64,000 nucleotides of DNA. Source: an uncultured Oscillospiraceae bacterium (GTDB lineage: Bacteria; Bacillota; Clostridia; UMGS1883). The first letter of the stretch is position 1, and each line of letters starts with the position of its first letter. The notes beneath the pieces are model-generated. The model was not told the DNA's origin. It saw only the letters and a program-made list of their open reading frames with translations, and did not search any database. Shown here one piece after another: positions 3,445 through 19,957 of this stretch. Location: contig CAYLPQ010000004.1 of NCBI GenBank assembly GCA_964385605.1, forward strand, positions 6,763-70,762. Direction: 5' to 3'. The position numbers and the translations under genes are program-made.

Positions 3445-3456
3445 CTACTATAAAAC

Positions 3457-4866
3457 TCATTTTAAATATTCATCTATTGCCTTTGCCGCTACCTTACCTG
3501 CACCCATTGCAGAAATTACCGTTGCGGCACCTGTTACCGCATCACCGCCGGCATACACTCCGTTCCGCGAAGTGAGACCGTCCTCGTTTACCACAATTCC
3601 ACCTTTTTTATTAACCTCAAGTCCGTCTGTTGTAGACTTGATAAGGGGATTAGGCGACGTACCGATTGACATTATAACGGTGTCTACCTCGATTTCAAAC
3701 TCACTGCCGGGAATTTCAACAGGTCTGCGACGACCTCTTTCATCCGGCTCACCAAGCTCCATTTTTATACATCTTATACCCGTCACAAAGCCGTTTCTTT
3801 CGTCACGTGTGTTGTCAGGATTGCTATATCCGAGGATTTCTACGGGCGAGCAGAGAAGATTGAACTCTACTCCCTCCTCCATTGCGTGCTCTACCTCTTC
3901 TTTTCTTGCAGGAAGCTCATCCATTGAACGGCGGTATACGATATACACCTTTTCCGCACCGAGGCGGAGAGCAGTTCTTGCCGCATCCATTGCCACATTT
4001 CCACCGCCCACAACGGCAACCTTGCCACCTTTCATAATCGGTGTATCAGGGTTTTCACGGTATGCTTTCATAAGGTTGCTTCTTGTAAGATATTCGTTTG
4101 CTGAATAAACACCCTTAAGTGATTCTCCGGGAATGTTCATAAACATAGGAAGCCCTGCACCCGAACCAATAAATACTGCCTCGTATCCCATATCAAAAAG
4201 TTCATCTACGGTCAGGGTTTTTCCTATAACAACATTTGTCTGTATTTCCACACCAAGTGCTTTGAGAGACTGAACCTCTTTCTTAACAATAGCTTTGGGA
4301 AGTCTGAATTCGGGAATGCCGTATACAAGCACTCCGCCCGCCGTGTGAAGTGCCTCAAATACGGTTACACCGTAGCCTTTCTTTGCAAGGTCTCCTGCAC
4401 AGGTGAGACCTGACGGGCCTGAACCTACTACTGCAACCTTGTGACCGTTACTTTCAGGCTTTACGGGAGGCTCTGTTGCAAATGTATTGTGCCAGTCAGC
4501 AACAAACCTTTCAAGTCTGCCGATACCCACAGATTCACCCTTGATACCGCGGACACACTTTGCCTCGCACTGGTTTTCCTGGGGGCATACTCTGCCACAC
4601 ACCGCAGGAAGTGATGAGGATTGTGTTATAATCTGATATGCACCCTCAAAGTCACCATCCTTTATCTTTGCAATAAATTCAGGAATATGGATATTAACGG
4701 GGCAACCCGTTACGCAAGGCATATGCTTGCAGTTGAGACAACGCATAGCTTCATCAATTGCCGCCTCTTCGCTATAGCCGAGAGCTACTTCATCGAAATT
4801 ACGGGCACGCACAATGGGGTCCTGAACGGGCATTTCGTTTCTTTTAACAGACATATTAGCCATCAC
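3457..4866 (-). CDS. nfnB: NADH-dependent reduced ferredoxin:NADP oxidoreductase large subunit (GltD-like, homotetrameric glutamate-synthase type)
   Basis: 469 aa. N-terminal 4Fe-4S cysteine motifs (CLNCKHMPCVTGCP, CGRVCPQENQCEAKC). Two Rossmann GxGxxG motifs (VVGSGPSG, VVGGGNVAMD). Start overlaps the stop of the upstream PyrK-like partner gene by 4 nt. Confidence 0.85.
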   Translation of the reverse strand: MMANMSVKRNEMPVQDPIVRARNFDEVALGYSEEAAIDEAMRCLNCKHMPCVTGCPVNIHIPEFIAKIKDGDFEGAYQIITQSSSLPAVCGRVCPQENQCEAKCVRGIKGESVGIGRLERFVADWHNTFATEPPVKPESNGHKVAVVGSGPSGLTCAGDLAKKGYGVTVFEALHTAGGVLVYGIPEFRLPKAIVKKEVQSLKALGVEIQTNVVIGKTLTVDELFDMGYEAVFIGSGAGLPMFMNIPGESLKGVYSANEYLTRSNLMKAYRENPDTPIMKGGKVAVVGGGNVAMDAARTALRLGAEKVYIVYRRSMDELPARKEEVEHAMEEGVEFNLLCSPVEILGYSNPDNTRDERNGFVTGIRCIKMELGEPDERGRRRPVEIPGSEFEIEVDTVIMSIGTSPNPLIKSTTDGLEVNKKGGIVVNEDGLTSRNGVYAGGDAVTGAATVISAMGAGKVAAKAIDEYLK

Positions 4867-5760: not shown

Positions 5761-5805
5761 ATATCGAATGCGTCAGCATATATCGAATGCGTCAGCATAT
5801 ATCGA
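5761..5805. repeat. tandem direct repeat, 19-bp unit ATATCGAATGCGTCAGCAT x 2.4
   Basis: Two exact copies at 5761..5779 and 5780..5798, plus a partial third. Located 44-88 nt upstream of the nfnA start. Confidence 0.9.
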
Positions 5806-5949
5806 TTAAAATGCAAAGCATCTTAAATAGGTATTTATTCATTATACATCACTATTTATTAAAAATCAACCTGTTCAGGAATAAAAACAGACTGTTTTAT
5901 TAATTTACACTGTCATTTTCCTTAATATAAATCCGTTAAATGGAAAAGG

Positions 5950-5979
5950 CAATTAAGTAACCTTTTGGTTACTTAATTG
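5950..5979. repeat. perfect 13-bp stem / 4-nt loop palindrome
   Basis: CAATTAAGTAACC-TTTT-GGTTACTTAATTG. No flanking T-run. Confidence 0.8.
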
Positions 5980-6020
5980 TAATATATTCTTGCGTATTTG
6001 TCAATCAAAAATCGGTCAAA

Positions 6021-6071
6021 GCATAAAATTCCCCAATTTGGGGACAGTCCCCAAATTGGGGAATTTTATGC
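6021..6071. terminator. 51-nt near-perfect palindrome (25-bp arms), likely terminator of the 1170-aa gene; member of a two-copy palindrome family
   Basis: GCATAAAATTCCCCAATTTGGGGAC-A-GTCCCCAAATTGGGGAATTTTATGC. Lies 76 nt downstream of the stop at 6147. Shares the GGGGACAGTCCCC centre and 16/21 arm positions with 41026..41068. Confidence 0.6.
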
Positions 6072-6146
6072 TCTAAACAAAGCTTTAAGAAAATGAGAAA
6101 AGAGATTCGCCCTTTCGGACGAATCTCTTTAATTATGCTTTTATTA

Positions 6147-9100
6147 TCAGTCGTGAAGTTCTGTGTTAGCATATGCAAGAGGTGTGATACCATCCGCATC
6201 TACAACGAAGATCTTAATCTGGTCGTAAGCTGCTGACTCCTTGGGATTTGCAGTACTGAGATTGTTAACAAGACCATTTGCTTCGTCATAACGGTCGCCT
6301 GTACCTGTCTCATCATCCCATGCTGCTGTTTCAGCAAAGTCAACAACACCTGCACCTACAAGCTTATCACCGAGGTATTTAGCTACGATAAGCTTTTCTG
6401 TACCTGCTGCACCTTCAATCCAAGCACCGTTGAGGCAGGCAGCTGAACCAAGTGCAAGGGCGCGGATTGAAACGGGAGCAACAAGTCTTGTAAATGTCTT
6501 AGACTCTGTAATACCGTTAGCAGTTGCTGTAACTGTCATTGTTACTTCCTTGGGAGAAGCTACATTGATTTCTGTTGCAGCCTGACCGTCAACTGTCCAT
6601 GCGATTGCGGGACCGTCTGTTACATATGTGTAACCTGCGGGATTTGCAGCCTTAAGAGCGCCCGATTCATCAAGGTCTCTGTTGAAGAGAGTGCCTGATA
6701 ACCACCATGACTTACCGATTGTCATAGCAGGAAGTGCACAGTTTGTAAGAACAGGCTTGTTATAAGTTGAAGCATAATCGAAGAGTGCTGCATTAAGAGC
6801 TGCATCTACTTCTACAGCATTCTGGTCGTTGTACTTTTTGAGTGTAATATTGTCAGCCCAGATTTCGCCTGTACCACTTAATTCAAGCGAGTAACCTCGG
6901 ATAGCGCTACCACCGTTTGCAGTAAGCTTCATATTAGCCTGAAGGATGGGAAGCTCGTTAAGGAGCTGACCATCAATGTAAACATACATTGTCTGAGAAA
7001 GAACGTTGTGGTCAACCATTACATTAACCCATTCTCCCTCGCCCTTTTCAATAACACTCTGGGGCATATCAAAGTACAATACCCCGCCAGAAGCAACAGA
7101 AAGAAATTTAGCTGCTGCTTCTACCTGTGCTACAGTTGAGTTTATGTGAATTTTTCCGGTGTTGTAATTGAAATAAATGTTTATACCGTTATAACCGGCA
7201 ATAGTCTTGAAGCTGATAGCACCTGAACTGCCAGCAGCACCGTTGTGTGTATACTTAACATCAGCGCTGATAACAACTCTGTCCTTACAGGTACCACCGT
7301 CAATAGTTGAGATAGCCCCGGTTGCCCAATGTTCGGTTGTTGTATTATTAAGGTGAATTACGTTACCGTGTGCAGCATCATCTGCTACGATTTCGGCATT
7401 ACTACCTGTTGATGTAGTAGTATCTGTGAAATCAATAGTATTAACAAGAGTTGTACCATCTGCAACAGGAACAGCAAATGTAACTGTATCACTTACATCG
7501 CCTGCTGTGATTGTAGCAGTCATATTAGCAACAAGGTTTGCGCCCACAGAAGCAAGCTTCGCTAATGTACCGTCATTTGTGATATAAGTTGCGTTATCCG
7601 ATGTCCAGTTAATTGCAACACCGAATGTTGTAAGGTCGTAATCTGCATATCCGTTGTCAAGGTCAAGCTGGTTGCCAACTTCAGAAACTGTACCAATTTC
7701 AGAAGCTTCAACAAGATCCTTAAAGAAAGCAACCTTCTCTGCATCTGAAAGTGTTGCAAGAACGTCAGATTTATCTAATTCTTTATAAAGCTTAATATCA
7801 TCAGCATCAAAAAAGTTGTTAATCTTTGTAACTGTAGCTGCATCTGTTGAGTCAGCATTGTAACGTCCCTTGAAGCTTACAAGTGCAGATGTGATATTTG
7901 CAGGAACTGCCTTGTATGTTTTGTGTGTGCCAACAAGCTGATCATTAATATAACATCTTACAGAGTAACCTGTGTCAACTTCTGCATTTGCATATACCTC
8001 ACACTTGATTGTGTACCAAGTATCCGCAGTAATATTCTTATCTGATCTTGCTGCGCCCGCACCGTGATAATCGTCCCATCCCTTGTCATAGTCATGGTCA
8101 TAGAGATAATCGTTGTAGTAAGAGAATGCTGCAATTTCAAGATCGTTAAGTTCAAGAGTCCAGTTCATAAGACCTGCCTTTACAGGCGCCTTAACCTTTG
8201 CCTCAAAAACAAGTGTTTCACCTGCTGCAAGAGATGCGGGGTATGACTGGAATGTATATTTGGGAACTGATCCGGTGGGCTGATATGCATTAGTTCCGAT
8301 ACGATAGAATTTGTTACCGTTTGCTTCCTGCATTACAGTCATGCTTTCCCACGTTTTGATTGAAGAAGGTGTCCAGCCTGTTGCACCAACGAAGCTGCCT
8401 ACTGCAAGGTTTTCTGCATCTGCAACCTCAGAAACGAATGACTGTGTAAGGGGAAGAACGTATGCAGTATATGTCTTAACAACGTCCTCTGCACCTTCCA
8501 CTGAAAGTGTACCTGTAACAGTAACTGTTGCTGCCTCTGAAATGGGGCGATTAACTGTACCGTCTGCAGCAATTACTGCAGGATTTGATGAAGCCCATGT
8601 AAGAGTTACACCGTCCACAAGCTCTTCACCGGGAGTGAAGTTAAGGTTTGTTGTAAGAGCTGCAAGGTTACCCTCACCTACAACATAGTCTTCTTCAAGA
8701 TACTGTGAATAGTAAGCTGACTTATCTGCAGCGCTTGCATTTGCAAGAACAGTTTCTGCAGGAACAGGCTGATACTCAACCCAGTTATCAATGCTGTAGT
8801 TACCTGTTGCACCATCAGATGCATCTACGATTGTTATGTTTGTAATAACAACCTTTTTAACGTCTGCTGCTGTGTTTTCATCTGTGAAAGTACCCTTTTC
8901 GAAAAGGTTGTTGGCAGAAAGCACTCCGTTACCGTAGAAGTCACCTGTAAGGGGATTGTACTTAATTTCAACATTGCTCTTTCTGTAGGCACCCATCCAG
9001 TAACCGCCCCAACCATTTGAAGCAAGTCTTGAAACAGTCTGACCGGAAATTGCACCAACCTTAGTACCTTCTGCGTTGTATTTCACAGCATCGATTCTAA

Positions 9101-9659
9101 TGTCGATACCTGTAACAACGTTTGCAATGTCCGCTGAATCAAATCTCATTGTGTAAATCTCATCAGATGCAGGAGCCTTGGGTGTATGATAAAGCCATAC
9201 ACGACCACTACCGTCTGTGTGGTTTACAGAGAACTTACCGTCAGCAACAGCACTGCCGCCGTTGTTTGTAGAACCAATGTACCACTCGGGATAGTTTGTG
9301 AATGTGTGTTTGTTTGATGATACAGTTGTAAGAGTCTCCGCTGTAGCGAAGTCTTCGCTGTAAAGCACATTTGTTGTCTGTGCCTTAACCGTAACATCAA
9401 CTGCTGTACCACCGTCAATTGCTACGGAAACAGTTGCATCCTCGAAAAGGGGACGTTTTACTGTACCATCTGTAGCTATAACAGCTTCGTTTGAAGATGT
9501 TATTGCGTGTTCGCCTAATACAAGATTACTTGTAACGAACTTTTGAGGCTGACCATTAGCGATAACTGAAAAATCAACCTCACCTTCTGCCATAACAGTG
9601 AATGTGCACATTGAGAGCACCATCAACACTGAAAGACAGAGTGCCATGAGTTTTTTCAT
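6147..9659 (-). CDS. giant secreted multidomain protein, paralogue A (atrophied-Ig type inserts plus LamG/concanavalin-like jelly-roll modules), function unknown
   Basis: 1170 aa. Signal peptide MKKLMALCLSVLMVLSMCTFTVMA. Repeated motif (W)xSSNxAVIxxDGTVxRP. Recurrent strand-terminal DN(I/W/F)x(V/L)(Y/K) motifs. No SLH, LPXTG or lipobox. First 106 aa identical to the 10910..13363 product. Confidence 0.85.
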   Translation of the reverse strand: MKKLMALCLSVLMVLSMCTFTVMAEGEVDFSVIANGQPQKFVTSNLVLGEHAITSSNEAVIATDGTVKRPLFEDATVSVAIDGGTAVDVTVKAQTTNVLYSEDFATAETLTTVSSNKHTFTNYPEWYIGSTNNGGSAVADGKFSVNHTDGSGRVWLYHTPKAPASDEIYTMRFDSADIANVVTGIDIRIDAVKYNAEGTKVGAISGQTVSRLASNGWGGYWMGAYRKSNVEIKYNPLTGDFYGNGVLSANNLFEKGTFTDENTAADVKKVVITNITIVDASDGATGNYSIDNWVEYQPVPAETVLANASAADKSAYYSQYLEEDYVVGEGNLAALTTNLNFTPGEELVDGVTLTWASSNPAVIAADGTVNRPISEAATVTVTGTLSVEGAEDVVKTYTAYVLPLTQSFVSEVADAENLAVGSFVGATGWTPSSIKTWESMTVMQEANGNKFYRIGTNAYQPTGSVPKYTFQSYPASLAAGETLVFEAKVKAPVKAGLMNWTLELNDLEIAAFSYYNDYLYDHDYDKGWDDYHGAGAARSDKNITADTWYTIKCEVYANAEVDTGYSVRCYINDQLVGTHKTYKAVPANITSALVSFKGRYNADSTDAATVTKINNFFDADDIKLYKELDKSDVLATLSDAEKVAFFKDLVEASEIGTVSEVGNQLDLDNGYADYDLTTFGVAINWTSDNATYITNDGTLAKLASVGANLVANMTATITAGDVSDTVTFAVPVADGTTLVNTIDFTDTTTSTGSNAEIVADDAAHGNVIHLNNTTTEHWATGAISTIDGGTCKDRVVISADVKYTHNGAAGSSGAISFKTIAGYNGINIYFNYNTGKIHINSTVAQVEAAAKFLSVASGGVLYFDMPQSVIEKGEGEWVNVMVDHNVLSQTMYVYIDGQLLNELPILQANMKLTANGGSAIRGYSLELSGTGEIWADNITLKKYNDQNAVEVDAALNAALFDYASTYNKPVLTNCALPAMTIGKSWWLSGTLFNRDLDESGALKAANPAGYTYVTDGPAIAWTVDGQAATEINVASPKEVTMTVTATANGITESKTFTRLVAPVSIRALALGSAACLNGAWIEGAAGTEKLIVAKYLGDKLVGAGVVDFAETAAWDDETGTGDRYDEANGLVNNLSTANPKESAAYDQIKIFVVDADGITPLAYANTELHD

Positions 9660-9697
9660 AGTGTTTTCCTCCTTAAATTTGAGCCGAAGCTCTTTAT
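9341..9697. repeat. left arm of a perfect 357-bp inverted repeat (38-nt leader with RBS plus first 106 codons)
   Basis: I compared blocks of about 60 nt across the whole arm against the reverse complement of 10872..11228 and found no mismatch. Identity ends abruptly at both borders. Confidence 0.9.
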
Positions 9698-9744
9698 TTA
9701 ATTTAAATTAATTTCTTTTATTATGTAATGGAAAAAACTACATT

Positions 9745-9770
9745 TACCACATAATTTGCATTATGTGGTA
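9745..9770. repeat. 26-bp putative recombinase core site, left (TACCACATAAT-TTGC-ATTATGTGGTA)
   Basis: Exact reverse complement of 10792..10817. Internally it has 11-bp symmetric arms around an asymmetric 4-bp centre. Confidence 0.8.
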
Positions 9771-9801
9771 GAGATACTCCTACCTATAATTATACATTTC
9801 A

Positions 9802-9830
9802 AGTATACCTCTGTTTTTCAAATTTGTCAA
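9802..9830 (-). promoter_or_regulatory. outward-facing sigma-A type promoter inside the invertible segment
   Basis: Minus strand TTGACA (9830..9825), 17-nt spacer AATTTGAAAAACAGAGG, TATACT (9807..9802). Located 32 nt inside the left site and 143 nt upstream of the ATG at 9659. Confidence 0.65.
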
Positions 9831-9893
9831 TACTTTGATGTATAATTTTGACAAAAGTATTAAATAAATTTTGTACGCTTTCAAAGAAATTGG

Positions 9894-10733
9894 TTAACAC
9901 CGTAAAAGCCCCAACATTTGAAGTTGTTTTCTGTGTTCAGCCCCTGATTCAACGGTGTAAATCCTCGTGGTATTAATGCTGGAATGACCCAAAACATCAG
10001 CAAGACGGACAATATCTTTTTGCAATGAATAAAAAGTCCTTGCGAAAAGATGACGGAAATTATGCGGAAACACCTTATCCTTTGACACCCCGGCACTTTT
10101 GCACAAAGATTTCAACATTTTCCATATATTTGAACGGTCAAGCGGATTGCCGTTTTTTGTTACAAAAATACTTCCTTTTTGCAAATTTTCTTCCCTTATA
10201 TATTTAACAAGCATTTTGCACAATTGCCCCGGCAGCATTACAACACGCATTTTCCCTTTGCAGTTTATTATTGCTTGCCGTGCTTTCACCGCTCCTACTG
10301 TAATATATTTAAGTTCAGATACTCTGATACCTGTAGAACATATTGTCTGCATTAAAAGCCAGAGCTTTTTGTTACCATCTTTAAGAGCTGCAGAAAGAAG
10401 CTTATCGTATTCTTTCTTGGTAAGTTCTTTTTCTTTATCTGCAAAAATGCGATTTTGAATTTTCAGTGTTTTTACCCGGCAATCACTCCATCCCAAAAAC
10501 TGAAAAAAGCAATTAAGTGACGACAACATAGAGTTTACACTGCGCGGAGCATATTCCCCCGAAATATAATTTTTATATTTAATAACACTCTCTTTGGTTA
10601 CGGTGTTTCCGTTTTGCCATTTTGCAAAAGCTAAAACATCGCGCAGGTATTTCCGGGATGTGGCAGACGACTTTTCCTCGCAAAAAAGATGTTGCCGGAA
10701 GTTTTCCATAGTTTCATCGGTTATTTTATACAT
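9894..10733 (-). CDS. tyrosine-type site-specific recombinase (XerC/D / phage-integrase fold)
   Basis: 279 aa. Catalytic set present: R (TGIRVSEL), K (CKGKMRVV), HxxR (HNFRHLFAR), H (LGHSSINTT), Y (TRIYT). N-terminal SAM-like core-binding domain. Confidence 0.9.
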   Translation of the reverse strand: MYKITDETMENFRQHLFCEEKSSATSRKYLRDVLAFAKWQNGNTVTKESVIKYKNYISGEYAPRSVNSMLSSLNCFFQFLGWSDCRVKTLKIQNRIFADKEKELTKKEYDKLLSAALKDGNKKLWLLMQTICSTGIRVSELKYITVGAVKARQAIINCKGKMRVVMLPGQLCKMLVKYIREENLQKGSIFVTKNGNPLDRSNIWKMLKSLCKSAGVSKDKVFPHNFRHLFARTFYSLQKDIVRLADVLGHSSINTTRIYTVESGAEHRKQLQMLGLLRC

Positions 10734-10791
10734 TTTAAAATCCTTCCTTTCATTTTCTCTTTATTATAACCGAAGCAATTCGATATATTCT

Positions 10792-10817
10792 TACCACATA
10801 ATGCAAATTATGTGGTA
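10792..10817. repeat. 26-bp putative recombinase core site, right (TACCACATAAT-GCAA-ATTATGTGGTA)
   Basis: Exact reverse complement of 9745..9770. Confidence 0.8.
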
Positions 10818-10871
10818 TAAACATATTTTCTGCCACGTTTGCACTTTGAAAATTTAATTAATTTAATTAAT

Positions 10872-11228
10872 ATAAAGAGCTTCGGCTCAAATTTAAGGAG
10901 GAAAACACTATGAAAAAACTCATGGCACTCTGTCTTTCAGTGTTGATGGTGCTCTCAATGTGCACATTCACTGTTATGGCAGAAGGTGAGGTTGATTTTT
11001 CAGTTATCGCTAATGGTCAGCCTCAAAAGTTCGTTACAAGTAATCTTGTATTAGGCGAACACGCAATAACATCTTCAAACGAAGCTGTTATAGCTACAGA
11101 TGGTACAGTAAAACGTCCCCTTTTCGAGGATGCAACTGTTTCCGTAGCAATTGACGGTGGTACAGCAGTTGATGTTACGGTTAAGGCACAGACAACAAAT
11201 GTGCTTTACAGCGAAGACTTCGCTACAG
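10872..11228. repeat. right arm of the perfect 357-bp inverted repeat
   Basis: See 9341..9697. Confidence 0.9.
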
Positions 11229-13363
11229 ATGATGAAGGAACGGTAAGTGGCACTACAAGAAGTTTTAGCTCTTATTCCGGATTTTCAGTGTCTACAGCTG
11301 CGGGAACAACAACAGCAATAGCTGACGGTGTCGTTAAAGTCGATATTGCGGCTGATTATGAAAAAGATGTGAAGGATCGTAGAACAAATTTCTACACTTA
11401 TGTACCGTCTTTTGACAAAACAAAACCTGTAGTAGTTCAGTTTGACGTTGATAACATAACAAACATTGTAAGTTCTTCCGCTGAAATCAGACCTACTTTT
11501 TATGCCTATCCGACGGATGGAAGTTCAAAAGTTGGTTTAGGCACTATTCAGCTTGCTAAACTTTACTCTGCCGGATTCGGAGCATCCAGTTTCTGTTCTT
11601 CTGACGGAGTTCCAAACAGCAAAACAGTAAAAATCCGCTACATTCCTACAACCGGCGAGATTTGGCTTAACGAACAGAAGTTGTCAAAAAATCTCCTTAC
11701 CTTAACGGACGGCGACTTCAGTTACGTAGCTTTAACCGGTATTAACATCTGTTGCGCAGGTAGCAACTGTGAGGCTCAATTTGATTTGGATAACTATGTT
11801 GTATATCAGGAATATTCCATTAATGATGTTCTTCTTAATGCAACAGATGAACAGAGAATCGAATATCTTAAAACTTATCTCACACCCGAAGTATTCGCAA
11901 ACGGACAGAGTCTTGCTTCAGTAGCTTCGAATCTTGTCTTTTCAACAGGACTTGATATGGAAGCTTTAGATGCAACTCTCGAATGGACAACAAGCGATGC
12001 CACAGTGATTGAGACCGATGGTACAATCCATCCAAAGCAGAATACATCTGTTAATGCAACAGTGCAGGGTACTCTTACCATTGGTGAGGAAATAACAGTA
12101 ACAAAGCCCTATAACATCAAGCTCGCGCCTGCCGGAACAATTGAATGTGTCACTGCAAAATTCAATTGGGATTTTGAAGATATGGAAGTAGGCACTACAA
12201 CCTCAACAACTAGTGTTAATACCTATTTAGGTGGTATAAAAGGTATTTACTTCGGTGGTGGAACGCATGAGTTTGTTAACGACTCTGAAAGAGGTATGAT
12301 GCTTAAGTCTACAGACCCGTCTATAATCCAGTTTTCTGCAGGTCAGCGCGGTCCCGGATATAACAAAAGATATGTTTTTGGATTCGACTACAAATTCACA
12401 CTCAAGGCAAATGCAACGTGGCATACTTTCACCACATATATGCGAGGCAACTCCAGTCAGCAAGTCGGATTTGCTTACTCAAATCAAGATGTGACAGTTG
12501 GTGATGTTACAACAAAATACCCTACCAGCGGTGGATATAAGCAGGATACTTTATTCGCAAGCAAGGTTCCTTGCTACAACGAAATAACTGCTCCTGACGT
12601 ATGGCATCACATTGATGTGGATTATAATTCCACCAAGAATGTTTATACTATTTATGTTGACGATAATAAAATCAACGAAATTCCGGGAAGTGCTCAAAAT
12701 AGTGCAGGCTATGTTGCTTACTGGATGCATACTCAACTTGCTAACATAGGAACATTCTATATGGACAATATGTATGTCAATGAATACACCGATTCTGACA
12801 TTGTAAAGGTAGACGGTGCTCTCAGACGTGCAGTATACGATGCAGCAGCACGTGAAACAGGGCAGAGCGGAGAATCCGGACCCTACAGAACAATCAACAG
12901 AACAGACCTTGATTCAGTTATAACAAGCGGTTCTGTTCCCACTCCCCAGACCGACAGTAATGGAGCAGTTCTTACTTGGAAGGTCAACGGAGTAGAACAT
13001 ACAGAAGCAACATACACTGCTCCTTCAGGTGCAAAGAGTGCTACATTTGAGGTAACTGCTTCATACAACGGAAAGAGCGCTTCACATACATTTACAAACA
13101 GATTTGCACCTGTTGAAATTACAGGATATACTTTTGAGGACAGAATTCTTAAGACAGTAACAATAGAAGGCAACTATACTGGTAAGAAGCTCGCAGTAGT
13201 TTCCGTGTCAACTCATAACAACAGTGTAAATAAAGTAAAGCTTGTAGAAATAACAGATACTACCGTTACACTTCCTGATGATTCAATTACCAACAATGGT
13301 AATGAAATTTATTTCTATGTGTTTGACGAAGAAACACTTCTCCCATATGCATTCAAGAGATAA
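10910..13363 (+). CDS. giant secreted multidomain protein, paralogue B (shares N-terminal 106 aa with A, then diverges)
   Basis: 817 aa. Same signal peptide and first domain as A. Built from the same module types (LEWTTSDATVIETDGTIHP motif, DNYVVYQ / DNMYVNEY strand motifs). Shares the C-terminal module ending IYFYVFDEETLLPYAF. Confidence 0.85.
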   Translation: MKKLMALCLSVLMVLSMCTFTVMAEGEVDFSVIANGQPQKFVTSNLVLGEHAITSSNEAVIATDGTVKRPLFEDATVSVAIDGGTAVDVTVKAQTTNVLYSEDFATDDEGTVSGTTRSFSSYSGFSVSTAAGTTTAIADGVVKVDIAADYEKDVKDRRTNFYTYVPSFDKTKPVVVQFDVDNITNIVSSSAEIRPTFYAYPTDGSSKVGLGTIQLAKLYSAGFGASSFCSSDGVPNSKTVKIRYIPTTGEIWLNEQKLSKNLLTLTDGDFSYVALTGINICCAGSNCEAQFDLDNYVVYQEYSINDVLLNATDEQRIEYLKTYLTPEVFANGQSLASVASNLVFSTGLDMEALDATLEWTTSDATVIETDGTIHPKQNTSVNATVQGTLTIGEEITVTKPYNIKLAPAGTIECVTAKFNWDFEDMEVGTTTSTTSVNTYLGGIKGIYFGGGTHEFVNDSERGMMLKSTDPSIIQFSAGQRGPGYNKRYVFGFDYKFTLKANATWHTFTTYMRGNSSQQVGFAYSNQDVTVGDVTTKYPTSGGYKQDTLFASKVPCYNEITAPDVWHHIDVDYNSTKNVYTIYVDDNKINEIPGSAQNSAGYVAYWMHTQLANIGTFYMDNMYVNEYTDSDIVKVDGALRRAVYDAAARETGQSGESGPYRTINRTDLDSVITSGSVPTPQTDSNGAVLTWKVNGVEHTEATYTAPSGAKSATFEVTASYNGKSASHTFTNRFAPVEITGYTFEDRILKTVTIEGNYTGKKLAVVSVSTHNNSVNKVKLVEITDTTVTLPDDSITNNGNEIYFYVFDEETLLPYAFKR

Positions 13364-13375
13364 TTATACGAAATT

Positions 13376-13424
13376 AAACACAAATCCCCCGACGGAATTC
13401 CGTCGGGGGATTTGTGTTTTTATT
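13376..13424. terminator. bidirectional intrinsic terminator between convergent paralogues B and C
   Basis: 20-bp perfect stem AAACACAAATCCCCCGACGG-AATT-CCGTCGGGGGATTTGTGTTT, flanked by A and T runs. Confidence 0.8.
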
Positions 13425-13437
13425 ATTATTTACTTTA

Positions 13438-16400
13438 TTACCAGTCAAGAAGGCCGTCTCTGAATGTCGCAGGACAAATTCCGTTTTCACCCATTACGAA
13501 AATCTTAACTTCTGTAATATCAGGCTCGATTTCTTCTGTATCGGGATTATCTTCCACTGTTCCCGGATGAGGTACACCGATACCCTTAAGAATACCTGTT
13601 TCGGGATTGTAACTCTTTTTGTTGTCTTCGTTAATTTCCTTGTTTGTAAGCTCTGCAAGGTCAAATAACTGAACCCAATCAACCTTTCTGTTATCAAGGT
13701 ATGTCACAACTACAACCTTTTCGTTACCTGTTGCGCCTTCAAGCCATACACCGTTAAGGCAAGACTCTGTACCGAGTGCAAGGCCACGGATAGCTACCGG
13801 AGCAGCCTTTCTGGCAACAGTCTTTGACTCTGTGATACCGTTTGCTGTTGCTGTAACTGTAAATTCTAAAATACCTGCCTGTGCAACATCGATTGAATCA
13901 ACTGCATCGCCGTTAACCTCATAGGTAAGAGCAGGACCGTCTTCTACATAAGTGTAAGTTGAGGGATTTTCAACCTTGATAGAAGGTGTTTCACCTTCAC
14001 CTGTACCGTCAAGATCTCTCTTATAAGCAGAGCCGTTAATCCATGACTTGCCGATTGTCATTGAGGGAAGGTCACAGTTAGTAAGAACAGACTTATATGC
14101 GTCTGAAGCATATTCAACAAGAGCTGCATTAAGAGCTGCATTTACTTCAACTGCATCTGTGTTAGAGAATTTCTTGAGAGAAACATTGTCAACCCACATT
14201 TCACCAGTCTGGCTAAGCTCAATCGAGAAGCCTCTGATTGCACTGCCACCGTTTGCGCCGAGGTCCATCTGTGCCTGAAGAAGGGGAACTTCGTTAACGA
14301 GCTGCCCGTCAAGGTATACTGAATATGTCTGTGAAAGTGCGTTGTGGTCAACAGTAATATGTACCCATTCGCCTTCGCCCTTTTCGATAACACTTGCGGG
14401 CATAGGGAATGTTACAGACTTGTTTGTATCTACAGTCAGAATGCTTGCACTACCGTCAACCCTTACTGTAGTTGTTACAAGCGAAACATTGCCTGTGTTA
14501 TAGTTAAGTCCAACTTGGATACCCTTCTTGCCTGCATAGGTCATAACACCAAGAGCACCGTATGCAGCTTCAGCCTCACCGTGTACATACTTAACGTCAG
14601 CCTCAACAACAAGTCTGTCTCCACGTCCACCGCCGGAAATAGCTGCGATAGTTCTGGACGTATTGTGTCCTGTTGTTTCGTTCTTGAGGTGAAGGACACT
14701 GCCGTGTGCAGCATCGTCTGTTACATAATCAGCTGTGCCTGAAGCAACTGTTGTATCAGAGAAGTCAACTGACTTAACAAGCACTGTACCGTCTGCAAGA
14801 GCAATTTCAATAGTTGAAGCACCACTTTCAGCACCTGCTGTGATTGTAGCTGTCATATCAACAGTTACATTTGTGCCGATTTCAGCAAGCTTGTTAACTT
14901 TACCATCGTTTGAAATATAGCTTTCATCGGATGACTTCCAAGTGATTGTTACACCGAGAGCATCAAGGTCATAATCTGCATATGTAGCATCAAGACCGAG
15001 AGTCTGACCTGCTGTTACGTCAAGGATTTCTGTAGTATCCACAAGTTCCTTGAAGAACGCAACCTTGCCTGCATCATCAAGGCCATCGAGAACAGAATCT
15101 ACTGACTGTGTTGTGTAAACCTGAATATCGTCTGTATCAAAGTAGTATACAGGAGCTGTAGGCTCGGTTATGCTGTCCATGTTGCTACGTCCTGTGAAAC
15201 CAAACTGCGCTGATGTAATTTCTTCGGGAACAGCATTCTTTGTAGAGTGTGTACCTACATTCTTACCGTCGATGAAGCAGTTAACTGTCCAGCCTGTTGT
15301 TGCTGCTGCGTTTTCAGTAATTTCAAGTCTGATATTGTACCAAGTGTCAGCTGTGATGTTCTTATCATTTCTTGCTGTACCGGCACCGTAGTAAGCATCA
15401 TTACCAAGGTCGTAGTCGTTATCATAAAGATAGTTGCTATAGTAGATGAACTCTGCTATTTCACTGTTGTTAAGGTAGAATGTCCAGTTACCTACACCGC
15501 CCTTTACGGGAACCTTAACCTTTGCCTCGAACACGAGTGTTTCACCCTCACCAACTGCGGGGTTAGTTTTGAAAGTATATCTGGGAGTTGAACCTGTTGG
15601 CTCATAAGCACTGGTAGAAATGCTGAAGTACTTATTGCCGTCAGCCTCTTCCTTAACTTCCATAGCTTCCCACTCCTTGATTATTGCAGGAGTCCAACCC
15701 TCTGCACCAACGAAGCTACCTGCTTCAAGGTTTTCAGCATCAACAACTTCTGTTGCGGATGTCATTGAAAGAGGAAGAACCTTTACAGTATATGTCTTCA
15801 CAATATCGTCTGCACCGTCAACCTTAACTGTGCCAGTGATTGTAACAGTCTTCGGTTCAAAGAAAGGACGTGTAACTGTACCATCTGTAGCTATAACAGC
15901 TTCATCGCTTGATTCCCATTCAATAGAAACACCTGCTACAAGCTCTTCATCAGCTTCAAACTTGAGGTCTTTTGTAAGGGCTTCGAAGTTACCGCCGTTT
16001 GCAATGTAATCCGCTGCAAGATACTTTGAATAATAAAGTGACTGCTGTGCAGGAGTTGCGCTCACAAGAACATCCTCTGCAGGAACGTCCTGATATACTG
16101 CAAAGTTATCAATTGTGTATGTACCTGTTGCGCTGTCAGATGCGTCTACAAAAGTCAAGCTTGTAACAGCAACCTTTGCTACATCTTCAGAAGTGTAACC
16201 TTCTTTTATTGTAGCATTGTCTGCAATAAGGTTCTTTGAATAAAGCACACCGTTACCCCAGAAGTCACCTGTCGTAGGATCATACTTCATTGTAACTCCT
16301 GCCTTCTTGTAGCTACCCATCCAGTAGCCACCCCAACCACTTGCAGAAAGTCTCGAAATTGTACCACCATTGTTAATAGAACCGATTATGTCACCGTCTG

Positions 16401-16980
16401 CATCATAAAGAGAACCGCCGAAACGGATATCAATACCTACACCAACATCAGCAATGTCCGCTGAATCAAATTGAATTGTCACAGGTTCATCTGTTTCGGG
16501 AGCAGCAACCTTATGGTAAAGCCATACTCGACCGTCACCGTCAGTGTGATTTGCTGTAAGCTTTCCGTCTGCAATCTTAACATTGTTATTTGCTGAACCA
16601 ATGTACCATTCGCTGTAATCTTCAAATGTGTGCTTGTTAGCCGACTCGGAAACAGCATCATTATCAACTGCGAAGTCCTCCGCATAGAGAACAGACACAG
16701 TCTGAGCCTTTACTGTTACATCGACAGCTTCACCGCCATCGATTGCTACCTGTACAACCGCATCCTCAAAAAGGGGACGTGTTACTGTACCGTCTGTTTC
16801 AATAACAGCCTCGTCGGAAGATGTTATTGTATGACTGCCGAGATCAAGATCAGCAGTTACAAAGTTTACAGGCTGACCGTTTGCGATTTCTGCAAAGTCA
16901 ACCTCTGCTGCCATTGCTGTAAATGAACACATTGAAAGTGCCATTAACATTGCAAGGCAGAGTGCCATGAGTTTTCTCAT
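13438..16980 (-). CDS. giant secreted multidomain protein, paralogue C (full-length homologue of A)
   Basis: 1180 aa. Collinear with A over its whole length at roughly 60-75% identity by eye. Signal peptide MRKLMALCLAMLMALSMCSFTAMA. Confidence 0.85.
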   Translation of the reverse strand: MRKLMALCLAMLMALSMCSFTAMAAEVDFAEIANGQPVNFVTADLDLGSHTITSSDEAVIETDGTVTRPLFEDAVVQVAIDGGEAVDVTVKAQTVSVLYAEDFAVDNDAVSESANKHTFEDYSEWYIGSANNNVKIADGKLTANHTDGDGRVWLYHKVAAPETDEPVTIQFDSADIADVGVGIDIRFGGSLYDADGDIIGSINNGGTISRLSASGWGGYWMGSYKKAGVTMKYDPTTGDFWGNGVLYSKNLIADNATIKEGYTSEDVAKVAVTSLTFVDASDSATGTYTIDNFAVYQDVPAEDVLVSATPAQQSLYYSKYLAADYIANGGNFEALTKDLKFEADEELVAGVSIEWESSDEAVIATDGTVTRPFFEPKTVTITGTVKVDGADDIVKTYTVKVLPLSMTSATEVVDAENLEAGSFVGAEGWTPAIIKEWEAMEVKEEADGNKYFSISTSAYEPTGSTPRYTFKTNPAVGEGETLVFEAKVKVPVKGGVGNWTFYLNNSEIAEFIYYSNYLYDNDYDLGNDAYYGAGTARNDKNITADTWYNIRLEITENAAATTGWTVNCFIDGKNVGTHSTKNAVPEEITSAQFGFTGRSNMDSITEPTAPVYYFDTDDIQVYTTQSVDSVLDGLDDAGKVAFFKELVDTTEILDVTAGQTLGLDATYADYDLDALGVTITWKSSDESYISNDGKVNKLAEIGTNVTVDMTATITAGAESGASTIEIALADGTVLVKSVDFSDTTVASGTADYVTDDAAHGSVLHLKNETTGHNTSRTIAAISGGGRGDRLVVEADVKYVHGEAEAAYGALGVMTYAGKKGIQVGLNYNTGNVSLVTTTVRVDGSASILTVDTNKSVTFPMPASVIEKGEGEWVHITVDHNALSQTYSVYLDGQLVNEVPLLQAQMDLGANGGSAIRGFSIELSQTGEMWVDNVSLKKFSNTDAVEVNAALNAALVEYASDAYKSVLTNCDLPSMTIGKSWINGSAYKRDLDGTGEGETPSIKVENPSTYTYVEDGPALTYEVNGDAVDSIDVAQAGILEFTVTATANGITESKTVARKAAPVAIRGLALGTESCLNGVWLEGATGNEKVVVVTYLDNRKVDWVQLFDLAELTNKEINEDNKKSYNPETGILKGIGVPHPGTVEDNPDTEEIEPDITEVKIFVMGENGICPATFRDGLLDW

Positions 16981-17074
16981 AGTTATTTTCCTCCTTTATT
17001 AAATAAATATATATGTGCGCTGAAAATCCTCCGCTGATATAACAGCTTTTTTCAGCACAAACACTCACATCATC

Positions 17075-17103
17075 ATTGTACATCAATAACAACAAAAAGT
17101 CAA
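17075..17103 (-). promoter_or_regulatory. fixed promoter of paralogue C
   Basis: Minus strand TTGACT (17103..17098), 17-nt spacer, TACAAT (17080..17075). Not flanked by inverted repeats. Confidence 0.5.
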
Positions 17104-17142
17104 CTAAAGTTGTAACATAATTTTAAAGAATTTGTAAACTTG

Positions 17143-17180
17143 AAAGCAGAGGTGAAGTCCGGGGAGCTCGCCTCTGCTTT
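17143..17180 (-). terminator. stem-loop downstream of the 913-aa SLH protein gene
   Basis: AAAGCAGAGG...CCTCTGCTTT 10-bp stem with flanking A/T runs. Lies 10 nt after the stop at 17190. Confidence 0.5.
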
Positions 17181-17189
17181 TATCAATTT

Positions 17190-19931
17190 TTATTTAAGCA
17201 CTACAAGTATATCACAAAGATGCTGTCTCTGACGGAAACCGTAAATCATTACACTGCCATCACCAATATCTATGTTGCCGTACTTATCAACATTACCTAT
17301 TGTAGGAATCTTTGTCTTGTCACCCTTTGTGATTTCACCTGTTCTGGTATCAAAGATTGTTACATAGGTAGCAGATGATGTTGTTTCAACATAGTATTCA
17401 TTATTTGCGAGAATACCGATAGAGCCATCTGTACCGGAAATGGGGTAACCTATAACATAACCCCATGTTGTTACATCATAGCTCGTTGATGAATAAGGTC
17501 CAAAGCCTTTACGGATTTGAGTTTCATCGCGCTGTGGAGACGCAACCATAATGGTTTTTGAAATTTCCTGTTTTTCGTTGTCAAACTGTATGAGGAATAT
17601 GTCGCCACACTTGACTCCTGTATACCCTTTTTCTTTGAGAGCGGCTTCAAACACTCCCGGAGCATGCTCACGGAATGTCCATATGTTGTTTTTCCAGAAA
17701 CCTGTTACCTGATAACGTTCTTCTCCAAATTCATCGATAATGACCTTGGCTTCTTTAACAGTAAAGGTTCTGTCATCGTAAGAAGATGCTGTCTGACAGC
17801 AAACCATTGCACCTGCCGCCCAATTCTGGTCTGTATCATAAATAGCAACCTGAAGACCCACAAGAGCAAAGCTGCTGTAGGGGACTACCCTTACTTTTGT
17901 TTCGTCTGTAGTTGTAAGCGAACCGGGTTGCTCTATAAGGAATATCTTGGTATTTTTATCGATGATATACTTACCACCGAGATTTTTGCTTGAATATCCC
18001 GCATAGGTTGAATAACTTCCTGTAACAATTTTATTGAACTTGCTCTGGTCAAAACCGTAGGGAGCTTCCTGCGTTGTTATAACAGTATTATCATACTCAA
18101 GCTTTGTAAATTCACCCTTGGAATTAATCTTGATTCTTATAAGCTGGGGAATAAAATTACCGGTTGTGCTGTAAAGGTCAGCACTGTTGACTACAGCATT
18201 ACCGTCATTTTCGTGGGTTCCGGCTGAATCGATAACCGTAAACTTCTTCGCCGCTTTCACAACAAGGCAGTCTCCCTGTTCGTTAACTATTTTAACAGCA
18301 GGTTTATCACCGGCAAGCCTATCTGTCGAGTCACTGCCTACTTCAAGAAGATATGCATACTCCTCACGCAGTTGAACCTCCTGGAACATTCCCGCTTCAC
18401 CGGCAACATTTATATACACAGTATATTTCGCACCTGACACGGGAGCCTTGAGACTTGAATTTTCGTCATTCATTGCCGCCATATACCATGCACCTACACG
18501 GTAAGTGCTTTCGCCCACCTCAATATGCATTATGTCGTTCTCATCAACCACGACACTGTCAATAACCATAGAGCTATTTACTTCACAAATATAAACAATA
18601 AGCTTTGTATAATCCTTTGACTTGTACACTGAAATGAGAGAATCATTTTTTATATCTGCTATTTCAGCCTCTTCACCTGCTAAATTATAGAAGTGAACAA
18701 CCTCATACTCTTTGTAAAGGATGGGGTCAGCATAATTGCTGTATATTGCTCCGGTAATAGTATTTACAGTTTTTACAAGGTAGTCCTCAAAAGTTTCTGC
18801 AACGATTGTTTCATACTCATTATTCATATCTGCATCAATAAGAGTAAGCTTACCTGTAGGAATTTTGAGCGTTTCACCGACAAATGACGGATATGCTGAA
18901 CCGTTATAGATTAAATCCGCATATATGCTAACCTTAACTTCTTCATTCTTACCTTTTGCATTCTTGTAAACAATGTTGCTCTTTGTGAATTTGTCAGAAT
19001 CTGTAGCAAGGTCATACGCATCTATAACTAAAATATTGTTCCTTGCTGTATCTGTGTAAGCATGTAAAAGTTCCTTTGTGCTACCGTCTCTGTAATAAGC
19101 AACCACACTTCTTCCGATAAGACCGGTAAATTTTTCAGCAACATTGACCATTCTCACACCGTCAATAACAGCAGTGCCGAGGCCTGATGCACTTTTAGAG
19201 CTGAGAGCTGTCTGTCCGTTGTCTGTCATTATACCTTTCCGCTTATAAATACTGTGGTAAACACCTAAAAAATCCAGATGTTCTTTATCTGTATAAGTAG
19301 AAGCCTGATAGGACACAGACTCCAGCACCGGAACCTTCGCGTCAAGAACAGCATCAATCATAAGCACTGCATCATACATTGTAAGGTCACGGTCATAGTC
19401 CGCTGCACCGCTTCTTAAAATGCCAAGATCGATTGCCTTTTTAAGATAACCTGTATAGTATCCGCCATAAAGCTCCGCAAGGTCCTTATAGCCAAGACCT
19501 GAAACAAGAACTTTTATAGCCTGTGCATAGGTAACTTTATTATCGGGCTTAAACTCAACATTATTCACTCCGACCATAAGACCCATTTTCTTAAGGGCTA
19601 TGATTGCTGTAGCATTTGTAGTAAGCTCTTTTACGTCAACATAGGGGTTTTCTGCAAATGATGCTTCGTAAAGATAATTACCAAGCACCTTTTCCATTAC
19701 TCCGGCAAATTCCGCTCTTGAAAGTGTTTCATCTGCATCTTTATCCAATTCTGGGAAAACACCTAAATCAAGAAGCATTTCCAGCTTGCTTTCAAAGGAG
19801 GCAAGCTCTGACTCTGAATACAGGGATTCTACAGTTTCAGCAGTCTCTTCTGCAGAGCCGATCACAAAATTCATCTGCGTAAACAGCAGTGTAAGCGCCG
19901 CTATGATAGCGATTAATCGTTTATTACGCAT
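17190..19931 (-). CDS. SLH-domain cell-surface protein, function unknown
   Basis: 913 aa. Signal peptide. Three N-terminal SLH-like repeats (e.g. YVDVKELTTNATAIIALKKMGLMVGVNNVEFKPDNKVTYAQAIKVL). The large C-terminal region is uncharacterised. Confidence 0.75.
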   Translation of the reverse strand: MRNKRLIAIIAALTLLFTQMNFVIGSAEETAETVESLYSESELASFESKLEMLLDLGVFPELDKDADETLSRAEFAGVMEKVLGNYLYEASFAENPYVDVKELTTNATAIIALKKMGLMVGVNNVEFKPDNKVTYAQAIKVLVSGLGYKDLAELYGGYYTGYLKKAIDLGILRSGAADYDRDLTMYDAVLMIDAVLDAKVPVLESVSYQASTYTDKEHLDFLGVYHSIYKRKGIMTDNGQTALSSKSASGLGTAVIDGVRMVNVAEKFTGLIGRSVVAYYRDGSTKELLHAYTDTARNNILVIDAYDLATDSDKFTKSNIVYKNAKGKNEEVKVSIYADLIYNGSAYPSFVGETLKIPTGKLTLIDADMNNEYETIVAETFEDYLVKTVNTITGAIYSNYADPILYKEYEVVHFYNLAGEEAEIADIKNDSLISVYKSKDYTKLIVYICEVNSSMVIDSVVVDENDIMHIEVGESTYRVGAWYMAAMNDENSSLKAPVSGAKYTVYINVAGEAGMFQEVQLREEYAYLLEVGSDSTDRLAGDKPAVKIVNEQGDCLVVKAAKKFTVIDSAGTHENDGNAVVNSADLYSTTGNFIPQLIRIKINSKGEFTKLEYDNTVITTQEAPYGFDQSKFNKIVTGSYSTYAGYSSKNLGGKYIIDKNTKIFLIEQPGSLTTTDETKVRVVPYSSFALVGLQVAIYDTDQNWAAGAMVCCQTASSYDDRTFTVKEAKVIIDEFGEERYQVTGFWKNNIWTFREHAPGVFEAALKEKGYTGVKCGDIFLIQFDNEKQEISKTIMVASPQRDETQIRKGFGPYSSTSYDVTTWGYVIGYPISGTDGSIGILANNEYYVETTSSATYVTIFDTRTGEITKGDKTKIPTIGNVDKYGNIDIGDGSVMIYGFRQRQHLCDILVVLK

Positions 19932-19957
19932 GTGTTATCACCCTTGCCTTTCCTTTC

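Follow-up and report, generated by a model that had tools for sequence, protein, structure and literature searches.

A probable site-specific promoter toggle between two secreted paralogues sharing a concertedly evolving 5' module in an uncultured gut Clostridia bacterium

Phase and antigenic variation have been well studied in pathogens and in Bacteroides, whereas the uncultured Clostridia, dominant in the guts of animals, have received much less attention. In the sap locus of Campylobacter fetus, which Dworkin & Blaser are said to have worked out in 1996-97, crossover reportedly takes place within conserved 5' regions of ~600 bp and is largely RecA-dependent, and the sap segment is said to carry the secretion genes sapCDEF (type I, for the S-layer proteins) and no recombinase. 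The slpA and slpB genes of Lactobacillus acidophilus, reportedly described by Boot et al. in 1996, are opposed S-layer genes with identical 5' regions, and inversion is said to exchange the expressed and the silent gene; the genes reportedly lie inside the 6-kb inverting segment, with the promoter outside it and no recombinase encoded within it. The vpma locus of Mycoplasma agalactiae and the vsp locus of M. bovis involve the Xer1/Mbr recombinase, a single promoter and sites in the 5' UTR, and the alternative genes, whose bodies are unrelated, have in common a highly conserved stretch of 5' UTR and signal peptide (PMC2268961). For cultured gut Clostridia, PMC11892184 describes an inverton group 139 that is linked to a nearby group of tyrosine invertases and flips in culture, its inverted repeats, at most 26 bp long, enclosing segments of ~205-230 bp. 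The ordinary gut-Clostridia invertons with which we compare our locus below are probably the "inverton group 139 / invertase group 35" of that source, an assignment made from geometry and taxonomy only. The locus described here, from an uncultured gut Clostridia bacterium, is a variant of these known phase-variation systems and involves no new mechanism.

The locus lies within a 64-kb stretch of DNA, which we call the window. Its features, with the strand where one applies, are the following.

6147..9659, minus strand: gene A, encoding a secreted protein of 1170 aa with a Sec-type signal peptide; the target faced by the promoter in this assembly
9341..9697: left arm, comprising A codons 1-106, the ribosome-binding site (RBS, 9668-9674), a UUCG hairpin (9681-9692) and 38 nt of leader
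9698..9744: type-1 spacer, separating the left arm from the left site; absent on the B side; type conserved in relatives
9745..9770: predicted left recombination site, TACCACATAAT-TTGC-ATTATGTGGTA, with two 11-bp palindromic binding arms and an asymmetric 4-nt core
9802..9830, minus strand: predicted sigma-70-type promoter, TTGACA-17-TATACT, within the segment and reading across the left site towards A
9894..10733, minus strand: Xer-like tyrosine recombinase of 279 aa, encoded within the putative invertible segment
10792..10817: predicted right recombination site, TACCACATAAT-GCAA-ATTATGTGGTA, its core reverse-complementary to that of the left site
10818..10871: type-2 spacer, on the B side, holding a weak promoter-like TTGAAA-16-TAATAT element
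10872..11228: right arm, comprising leader, hairpin (10877-10888), RBS (10895-10901) and B codons 1-106
10910..13363, plus strand: gene B, encoding a secreted paralogue of 817 aa; the proposed alternative target after inversion
13438..16980, minus strand: gene C, a third paralogue outside the switch, with its own fixed promoter-like site at 17103-17075

A segment of 1073 bp (9745-10817) thus lies between the long arms and is bounded by the two 26-bp sites, which are inverted relative to each other because the right core is reverse-complementary to the left one. Both sites lie outside the ORFs, at 85 and 92 nt before the start codons, for which reason a gene-altering inversion or shufflon, with sites in coding sequence and chimeric ORFs, was rejected as a model for the locus. 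The only coding content of the segment is the tyrosine recombinase, which matches PF00589 (E 4.7e-27) and PF02899, is XerA/XerD-like by NCBIfam and PDB sequence search, and carries the R..HxxR..Y signature, read directly from its translation as GIRVSEL, HNFRH and GHSSINTTRIY. The predicted promoter is an 11/12 match, tied for the best sigma-70 match in a scan of 5800-17400, and is kept in six related segments, a conserved consensus match that suggests promoter activity; it faces A in this assembly, although with a perfect repeat of 357 bp the inner part may have been set in either orientation by a short-read assembler. A literature search for the site sequence returned chance primer matches only.

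The product of gene A matches an atrophied Big_2 Ig-like domain in Pfam (PF20578, E 1.8e-26), the PDB sequence search with protein A gave no match, and the NCBIfam search gave none for proteins A and B. The signal peptide of B, read from the translation, is likewise of the Sec type, and the signal-peptide cysteine is unconserved in relatives, which indicates that the two proteins are not lipoproteins. The first-pass annotation had described the genes as fused to one perfect inverted repeat and otherwise different. A base-by-base check of the 357-nt arms found zero mismatches between one arm and the reverse complement of the other, and the pair is by a wide margin the longest inverted repeat of the window; a repeat finder extends it to 9341-9713 / 10856-11228 (373 nt, 99%), with 2 mismatches within the added 16 nt. 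The arm content is also as first described, namely 38 nt of leader with a GAGC-TTCG-GCTC hairpin and an AAGGAGG ribosome-binding site, followed by codons 1-106 of A and B, and the arms take in one further base past codon 106 in both ORFs. The edge of identity is as abrupt as had been claimed, the A and B proteins being 100% identical over residues 1-106 and sharply divergent thereafter, and the arm-to-site spacers of 47 and 54 nt are indeed unlike, except for their first ~16 nt. The wording "otherwise different" was slightly overstated, since A and B are only weakly similar past codon 106 but are distant paralogues over their whole length.

No recognisable recombinase site is present in the arms, although these sit inside ORFs, and an Rfam scan of 9300-11300 gave no match. 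The outer end of the arm holds a palindrome, AGCGAAGACTTCGCT, which was considered as a second site and rejected; it is unconserved in relatives and falls within a conserved protein motif (..Y.(E/N)DF..). The TTGAAA-16/17-TAnnAT element of the type-2 spacer was also considered, as a non-inverting promoter that would serve the adjacent gene, but is just a weak match in AT-rich DNA.

The layout is sap-like, as the first-pass annotation had recognised, with two opposed paralogues that share a 5' region around a promoter-bearing segment, and as in sap an inversion would swap which of the two gets the single promoter. Unlike in sap, a tyrosine recombinase and 26-bp sites sit between the arms, comparison of loci puts the crossover at those sites, A and B carry Sec signal peptides, and the segment is without secretion genes. 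The arrangement also differs from slpA/slpB in that the genes are outside the segment and the promoter and recombinase within it. With vpma and vsp the locus shares an Xer-like recombinase, sites in the 5' UTR, one promoter and a conserved 5' UTR and signal peptide. Those systems, however, comprise many lipoprotein genes in Mollicutes, whereas here there are two non-lipoprotein genes in a lineage of Clostridia known from metagenome-assembled genomes (MAGs); there the recombinase lies beside the invertible DNA and blocks of genes move to a fixed promoter, whereas here promoter and recombinase would flip together; and the conserved module here reaches 106 codons into the protein. The ordinary gut-Clostridia invertons have the same recombinase family (50-68% identical), sites of the form ACCACATAAT-N4-ATTATGTGGT and an outward promoter on the segment, but their recombinase lies just outside a segment of ~190-300 bp and one downstream gene is turned ON or OFF, whereas in four genomes, the window included, a second target gene makes of this an A/B toggle with long arms.

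We give a probability of about three in four (0.75) to the reading that the locus is a site-specific promoter toggle with a concertedly evolving shared 5' module, the arms being dispensable for the switch. The recombinase would invert the 1073-bp segment by crossover at the two 26-bp sites, and the outward promoter at one segment end would then read into A, as in this assembly, or, once flipped, into B. The targets would be two large secreted proteins whose leader, signal peptide and first Ig-like domain are held in common, and the 357-bp repeat would be their shared 5' module, its DNA identity stemming from recent conversion between the facing copies and the conversion tract ending where gene-body homology ends (~codon 106), in related genomes too. 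Recombination between the arms would turn round a somewhat longer stretch, to the same phenotypic effect, and would be an occasional by-product at most.

Comparison of loci places the crossover at the 26-bp sites, at which the segment of this strain would flip too. A site pair of the form given above, with reverse-complementary cores, was found at 69 of the 88 genome/Logan loci (a set that includes the window's own locus) and at 46 of the 76 metagenome loci. The site arms are conserved throughout these ~115 homologous loci, while the 4-nt core varies (34 distinct cores in the genome/Logan set, including a compensatory TTGA/TCAA pair in the related genome L001) and is always reverse-complementary between partners; the conserved arms together with the covarying cores mark the 26-bp sites as the crossover points. 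In relatives the 26-bp site is perfectly conserved and its flanking DNA 77-83% identical. Both spacer types remain outside the segment, and the type-1 spacer borders its promoter end in the window and in L003 but, in L001 and L002, the end where the recombinase gene starts; relative to the spacers, then, the segment has been inverted. An independent contig of 1081 nt (L081), 100% identical to the window's segment, has the A-side flank CATT on both ends, and its junction CATT|site|AGAATATATCG is missing from the window and is the product predicted for inversion at the sites, although this evidence amounts to a 4-nt flank and a strain variant with an inverted repeat extending past the site would yield the same contig. 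In L164, whose recombinase is 80% identical, the same sites and an internal recombinase serve one target gene and there are no long arms, which shows that long arms are not needed for flipping.

At most homologous loci the site pair flanks a non-coding segment of ~190-300 bp that adjoins the recombinase gene. In the window's sub-clade the upstream site instead lies beyond the recombinase gene, so that the enzyme would flip along with the promoter. The two-gene layout is retained in three related genomes, and a scan of metagenomes found almost no further close relatives that have it. Three loci from different samples with the same recombinase (L085, L086 and L087), compared to look for opposite orientations, are collinear in their overlapping parts.

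If the 26-bp palindromes were terminators or hairpins flanking the recombinase gene, the arms would be the sole substrate or there would be no inversion, and a terminator scan does flag 9770-9745 (minus strand), where a stem of 11 bp runs into a T-rich tail and RNA fold prediction gives a stable hairpin. We consider this very improbable, since the stems are conserved across loci whose recombinases are 50-68% identical, where terminator stems would covary and not stay identical in sequence, since the loops differ between loci and are always reverse-complementary within a locus, and since such a pair around a short non-coding segment beside a recombinase is classic inverton geometry. The first-pass annotation had envisaged two nested possible routes, one site-specific and one homologous. 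In a rival explanation built on the second of these, RecA-dependent inversion within the 357-bp arms would be selected and arm identity kept for it. The sap-like layout is in keeping with this, RecA would find an excellent substrate in a perfect repeat of 357 bp, arms of equal extent are retained in the three other genomes, and the link between body and spacer is inconstant: a B-type body is paired with spacer type 2 in the window and with type 1 in L002, a mismatch that calls for at least some recombination in the arms or close to them. An occasional crossover there is possible and compatible with the data from the four complete genomes compared. The proposal that the arms are a selected route found no support in the comparison, however, and we judge it unlikely, because the dedicated recombinase and its strongly conserved, covarying sites already explain inversion. 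Core covariation, the L081 junction and the exchange of spacers between segment ends, which an arm crossover is unable to produce, all favour the 26-bp sites; a relative without arms exists; the arms of relatives are just 76-88% identical, so their identity is unmaintained; and crossover between identical arms adds no outcome beyond that of site-specific inversion. A sap-like RecA route through the arms is possible and unsupported.

What the arms do record, on the reading of a site-specific toggle, is recombination of another kind, and the identical 357-bp starts of A and B are best explained, as far as sequence comparison can tell, by recent gene conversion between the facing copies, probably of a RecA type. 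That the arms have been homogenised rather than simply conserved was already suspected at first pass and is borne out when the N-terminal module of gene C is taken as the unconverted reference: third codon positions of the module are 100% identical between A and B and 51-67% identical between A and C, and an 8-nt hairpin insertion that occurs in this genome only is found in both arms. A conversion signature is also seen in relatives, as the A-type orthologues of L001 and L003 show 0 differences in 215 body columns and 46 in 380 arm columns; at 38 of the 46 differing columns, one or both of the two sequences agree with their own partner arm. Purifying selection acting by itself on leader, signal peptide and first domain would account for the module being the best-conserved part among all paralogues (A/C protein identity is 75-76% there, in agreement with the ~75% first estimated, versus 55% overall), but as the cause of the identity it is effectively refuted by the A/C versus A/B third positions. 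Synonymous sites are free under protein selection, yet A and B agree at every third position over 106 codons; the 38 nt of untranslated leader are identical too, and the partner-matching substitutions in relatives are what conversion predicts. Within-genome arm identity in the four genomes is 100, 88, 86 and 76%, and past the arm end it falls to 16-36% inside the same 40-column alignment block. The arms of relatives stop at the same codon, and perfect identity is episodic rather than maintained. It would be improbable, in our view, for the perfect identity to be an assembly or polishing artefact of a MAG whose true arms are similar and non-identical. The window matches MAG-type records only, the 1081-nt Logan contig with the recombinase breaks at the repeat, and multi-mapped reads can homogenise near-identical repeats, so that polishing could turn such a repeat into a seemingly perfect one; the 76-88% identity of relatives' arms speaks for an artefact as well. 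A de Bruijn graph would keep arms at 76-88% apart, however, so that collapse requires near-identity anyway; the sharp identity edge stands at the same module boundary in independent assemblies, the genome-specific hairpin insertion is in both arms, and the conclusion of conversion survives even if a few differences were erased. We read the perfect arm identity here as reflecting very recent conversion in a shared 5' module that evolves in concert.

A more ambitious reading, which we hold to be unlikely, is that the 5' module is a maintained homology anchor working with the invertase, giving a two-tier antigenic variation. The module could be converted again and again, either through Holliday junctions or breaks arising at the sites or through RecA events in the arms, and a single crossover in it would swap in whole gene bodies. 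Four related genomes carry four body pairs behind the same module (A/B, A/D, B/D' and A/E), which body swapping through module crossover could explain.

As a probable two-state switch between surface proteins, the locus is a clean case defined at the level of sequence. For a very large family of recombinases it also establishes the site grammar, ACCACATAAT-N4-ATTATGTGGT with a core specific to each locus, by which such switches could be located, and their orientation read, straight from metagenomes. The shared module is a clear natural case of concerted evolution that goes no further than a sharp edge of homology. If the module does act as a homology anchor, a fast site-specific toggle would be combined in gut Clostridia with a slower, homology-anchored replacement of cassettes.

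Base-by-base comparison of positions 9341-9697 and 10872-11228 gave perfect reverse complementarity over 357 nt, as the first-pass annotation had described, and all of the factual statements in that annotation were borne out. A repeat finder lengthened the pair to 373 nt at 99% identity, and it is by a wide margin the largest inverted repeat of the 64-kb window. Each arm contains a 38 nt leader, in which a GAGC-UUCG-GCUC hairpin precedes the AAGGAGG ribosome-binding site, followed by codons 1-106 of an open reading frame (ORF).

Features of the locus
6147-9659, minus strand: gene A, ORF of 1170 aa
9745-9770: left site, TACCACATAAT-TTGC-ATTATGTGGTA, 26 bp
9830-9802, minus strand: outward sigma-70 promoter match, TTGACA-17-TATACT (11/12, tied best in the 11.6 kb scanned)
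9894-10733, minus strand: tyrosine recombinase, 279 aa (PF00589, E 4.7e-27; XerA/XerD-like)
10792-10817: right site, 26 bp, flanks as in the left site, core GCAA
10910-13363, plus strand: gene B, ORF of 817 aa
13438-16980, minus strand: C, third paralogue

Proteins A and B are identical over residues 1-106 and weakly similar thereafter (46% across the first ~410 residues, identical part counted, and ~22% further on). Overall identity between C and A is 55%, rising to 75-76% in the N-terminal module, matching the ~75% first noted. All three begin with a Sec-type signal peptide and contain atrophied Big_2 domains; a domain search found neither an S-layer-homology (SLH) domain nor another recognizable anchor in them, a sequence search with protein A gave no PDB match, and A and B had no NCBIfam match. 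Two genes with SLH domains (17190-21748) lie directly downstream of C, so the organism probably has an SLH-anchored surface layer, and a cell-surface role for A, B and C is likely. The convergent genes B and C have a perfect 44-nt palindrome (13376-13419) between them, likely a bidirectional terminator, and a perfect 26+26-nt palindrome (6020-6072) lies downstream of gene A.

The two sites, of which the 64-kb window holds no further copy, bound a 1073-bp segment that encodes the recombinase, in whose translated sequence the R, HxxR and Y motifs can be recognized. The predicted promoter is at the segment end distal to the recombinase start and points across the left site towards gene A, so that in the assembled state it faces A and inversion at the sites would redirect it to B. 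We propose that the recombinase inverts the segment in this strain and that the promoter, if active, would be the sole driver of A or B in turn. The leader is predicted to fold into a site hairpin and the UUCG hairpin, and no Rfam family matched in the leader region. On the minus strand, site 9745-9770 forms an 11-bp hairpin in the promoter's transcript, with a U-rich run a few bases on and a T-rich tract to ~9731; a scan scored it as terminator-like, relatives retain a GGAGTTTCTTC tract there, and it could act as a leader attenuator. The stretch separating the stop codon of the recombinase gene from the outward promoter holds a second conserved block (TTTAATACTTTTGT.AAAA.TATACA in recombinase orientation; 9817-9846, plus strand), and the block's opposite strand has a TTCAAA-18-TATAAT match, a possible antisense promoter directed into that gene. 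Small TTCG-loop hairpins are lineage-specific insertions whose position varies among loci: in the window they occur in the leader (9681-9692 / 10877-10888) and upstream of the recombinase gene (~10762-10775), and they adjoin the site in the homologous loci L083 (~1440-1462) and L164 (~3455-3475).

The recombinase family is very large in metagenome-assembled genomes (MAGs) of gut Clostridia. In most homologous loci, whose recombinases are 50-68% identical, a ~190-300-bp segment comes directly after the gene, with 20-30-bp flanking inverted repeats, all of the form ACCACATAAT-N4-ATTATGTGGT, and the downstream genes are varied (TetR-like and Rrf2-like regulators, large secreted proteins). Site pairs with reverse-complementary cores were found in 69 of the 88 genome/Logan loci (the window's own included), with 34 different cores in that set, and in 46 of 76 metagenome loci. 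Conserved binding arms around a locus-specific, partner-matched core are what tyrosine-recombinase strand exchange requires; a terminator hairpin would lack this pattern, and it is very unlikely that the site pair consists only of terminators. Many ordinary loci have two or three tandem site copies on one or both sides of the segment, with the same core throughout (L028, 6940-7428; L015, L017, L023, L030, L048, L051, L054, L058, L061, L065, L067, L073), mostly spaced ~32-43 nt (53 nt in L073), which could allow nested alternative inversions or serve as accessory binding sites. The family and its typical paired sites also occur in a Rikenellaceae MAG (L066, Bacteroidota) and a Gastranaerophilaceae MAG (L035, Cyanobacteria-related Melainabacteria), through either horizontal transfer or binning contamination; a published survey likewise notes its own invertase group 35 in both Clostridia and Bacteroidia (PMC11892184). 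By geometry and taxonomy, the family fits 'inverton group 139' from that survey of cultured gut strains, comprising 33 invertons (32 from Clostridia), with examples having inverted repeats up to 26 bp and segments of ~205-230 bp, linked to a neighbouring tyrosine invertase group and flipping during passaging (PMC11892184).

The closest relatives, with recombinases 74-84% identical, have their upstream site on the far side of the recombinase gene, so that the enzyme is part of the segment that flips. Every base of the 26-bp site is conserved in these relatives within DNA that is 77-83% identical, L001 carries a compensatory core change (TTGA/TCAA), and the outward promoter match is conserved in six related segments. 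One and the same recombinase protein (P0002) occurs with and without an extra HEPN/nucleotidyltransferase (MNT) toxin-antitoxin-like gene pair, inserted within the invertible DNA on the upstream side of the recombinase gene (L082:96-840, cf. L083, L084). The complete two-gene arrangement, with ~400-nt arms, is retained in three MAGs (L001, L002, L003). In the metagenome contig L164 the internal recombinase shares 80% identity with that of the window, the sites are again TTGC/GCAA, and there is a single target gene (N-terminal module 83% identical to A), with no inverted repeat besides the sites, which puts the long arms outside the flipping machinery; only loci with two opposed paralogous targets have them.

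The proposal that the arms are actively homogenized held, with episodic gene conversion as the form it takes. Identity at third codon positions is 100% for A and B and 51-67% for A and C, and the untranslated leader is likewise identical between the arms; protein-level selection therefore cannot explain the arm identity and is ruled out as its cause. An 8-nt insertion creating the UUCG hairpin is present in both window arms and in neither the relatives nor C, most simply one event copied to the other arm. Within-genome arm identity is 88% in L001, 86% in L002, 76% in L003 and 100% in the window, the last in an apparently MAG-type assembly, where a few true mismatches of nearly identical arms could be lost in polishing and where the part enclosed by 357-bp perfect repeats cannot always be oriented from short reads. 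In all four genomes identity drops to 16-36% inside one and the same 40-column alignment block, immediately past the ..EDFA motif (~codon 106), beyond which gene bodies group by type and not by genome: A-type in the window, L001 and L003 (83-98% identical), B-type in the window and L002, D-type in L001 and L002, and a unique body in L003. The relatives keep the extent of the arms, which end alike while bodies diverge, but not their perfect identity, at only 76-88% in L001-L003. The A-type orthologues of L001 and L003 show 0 differences in 215 aligned body columns and 46 in 380 arm columns, and at 38 of these 46 at least one of the two sequences agrees with its own partner arm, a direct mark of gene conversion between the two arms facing each other. 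Of the four genomes, the window is the most recently converted, and its tract is bounded outward by the end of homology and inward by the heterologous spacers; RecA-type homologous repair between the inverted copies would carry out the conversion. Alternative body pairs vary by genome (A/B, A/D, B/D', A/E) around a conserved 5' module and switch, which suggests whole-body replacement or reassortment at the locus.

Three indirect lines, namely core covariation, spacer types and the contig L081, point to crossover at the 26-bp sites. The spacers between arm and site (47-54 nt; 9698-9744 and 10818-10871 in the window) are of two conserved types, one of each per genome in the window and L001-L003, and type 1 adjoins the segment's promoter end in two of them (window, L003) and its recombinase-start end in the other two (L001, L002). 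The segment has therefore turned relative to the spacers, which crossover in the arms could not achieve because the spacers would travel along. Type 2 spacers carry a conserved promoter-like TTGAAA-16/17-TAnnAT element directed at the gene, and this could provide the gene with basal expression in either orientation. L081, an independent 1081-nt contig (run SRR14307658) 100% identical to the window's segment, ends exactly 30 nt into the repeat on each side, presumably k-1 of a k=31 assembly, and has the A-side flank CATT at both ends; its junction CATT|site|AGAATATATCG, which the window lacks, is what inversion at the sites is predicted to produce. This evidence is suggestive and rests on 4 nt, and a strain whose inverted repeat extended past the site would yield the same contig. 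The first-pass annotation had also seen in the arms a possible second, homologous crossover route, which is unsupported, since the crossover evidence favours the sites and L164 lacks arms. The B-type body is accompanied by spacer type 2 in the window but type 1 in L002, so some recombination must have occurred within the module or close to it, and arm crossover is plausible as an occasional event, inverting a slightly larger piece with the same effect on expression as inversion at the sites; the comparison, of four genomes, gave no indication of it as a selected route.

The Campylobacter fetus sap locus, initially proposed as the closest parallel, has opposed paralogues, a conserved 5' region and a promoter on an invertible piece, and this layout is common to both loci. 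However, sap is not known to encode a recombinase and RecA acts within its conserved regions, whereas the window encodes a recombinase and a RecA crossover route there is unsupported. The Mycoplasma vpma/vsp systems share with the window an Xer-like recombinase, a single promoter, sites in the 5' UTR and a conserved 5' UTR and signal peptide, but they are multigene lipoprotein families with the recombinase outside the moving DNA (PMC2268961). Homology groups the window's locus with the promoter invertons of Clostridia, and it is a derived member in which the recombinase was internalized, a second target added and a long module shared. Its switch logic is that of known surface-antigen toggles, and the locus would represent a well-documented, unsurprising pairing of a site-specific promoter toggle with concerted evolution of a shared 5' module.
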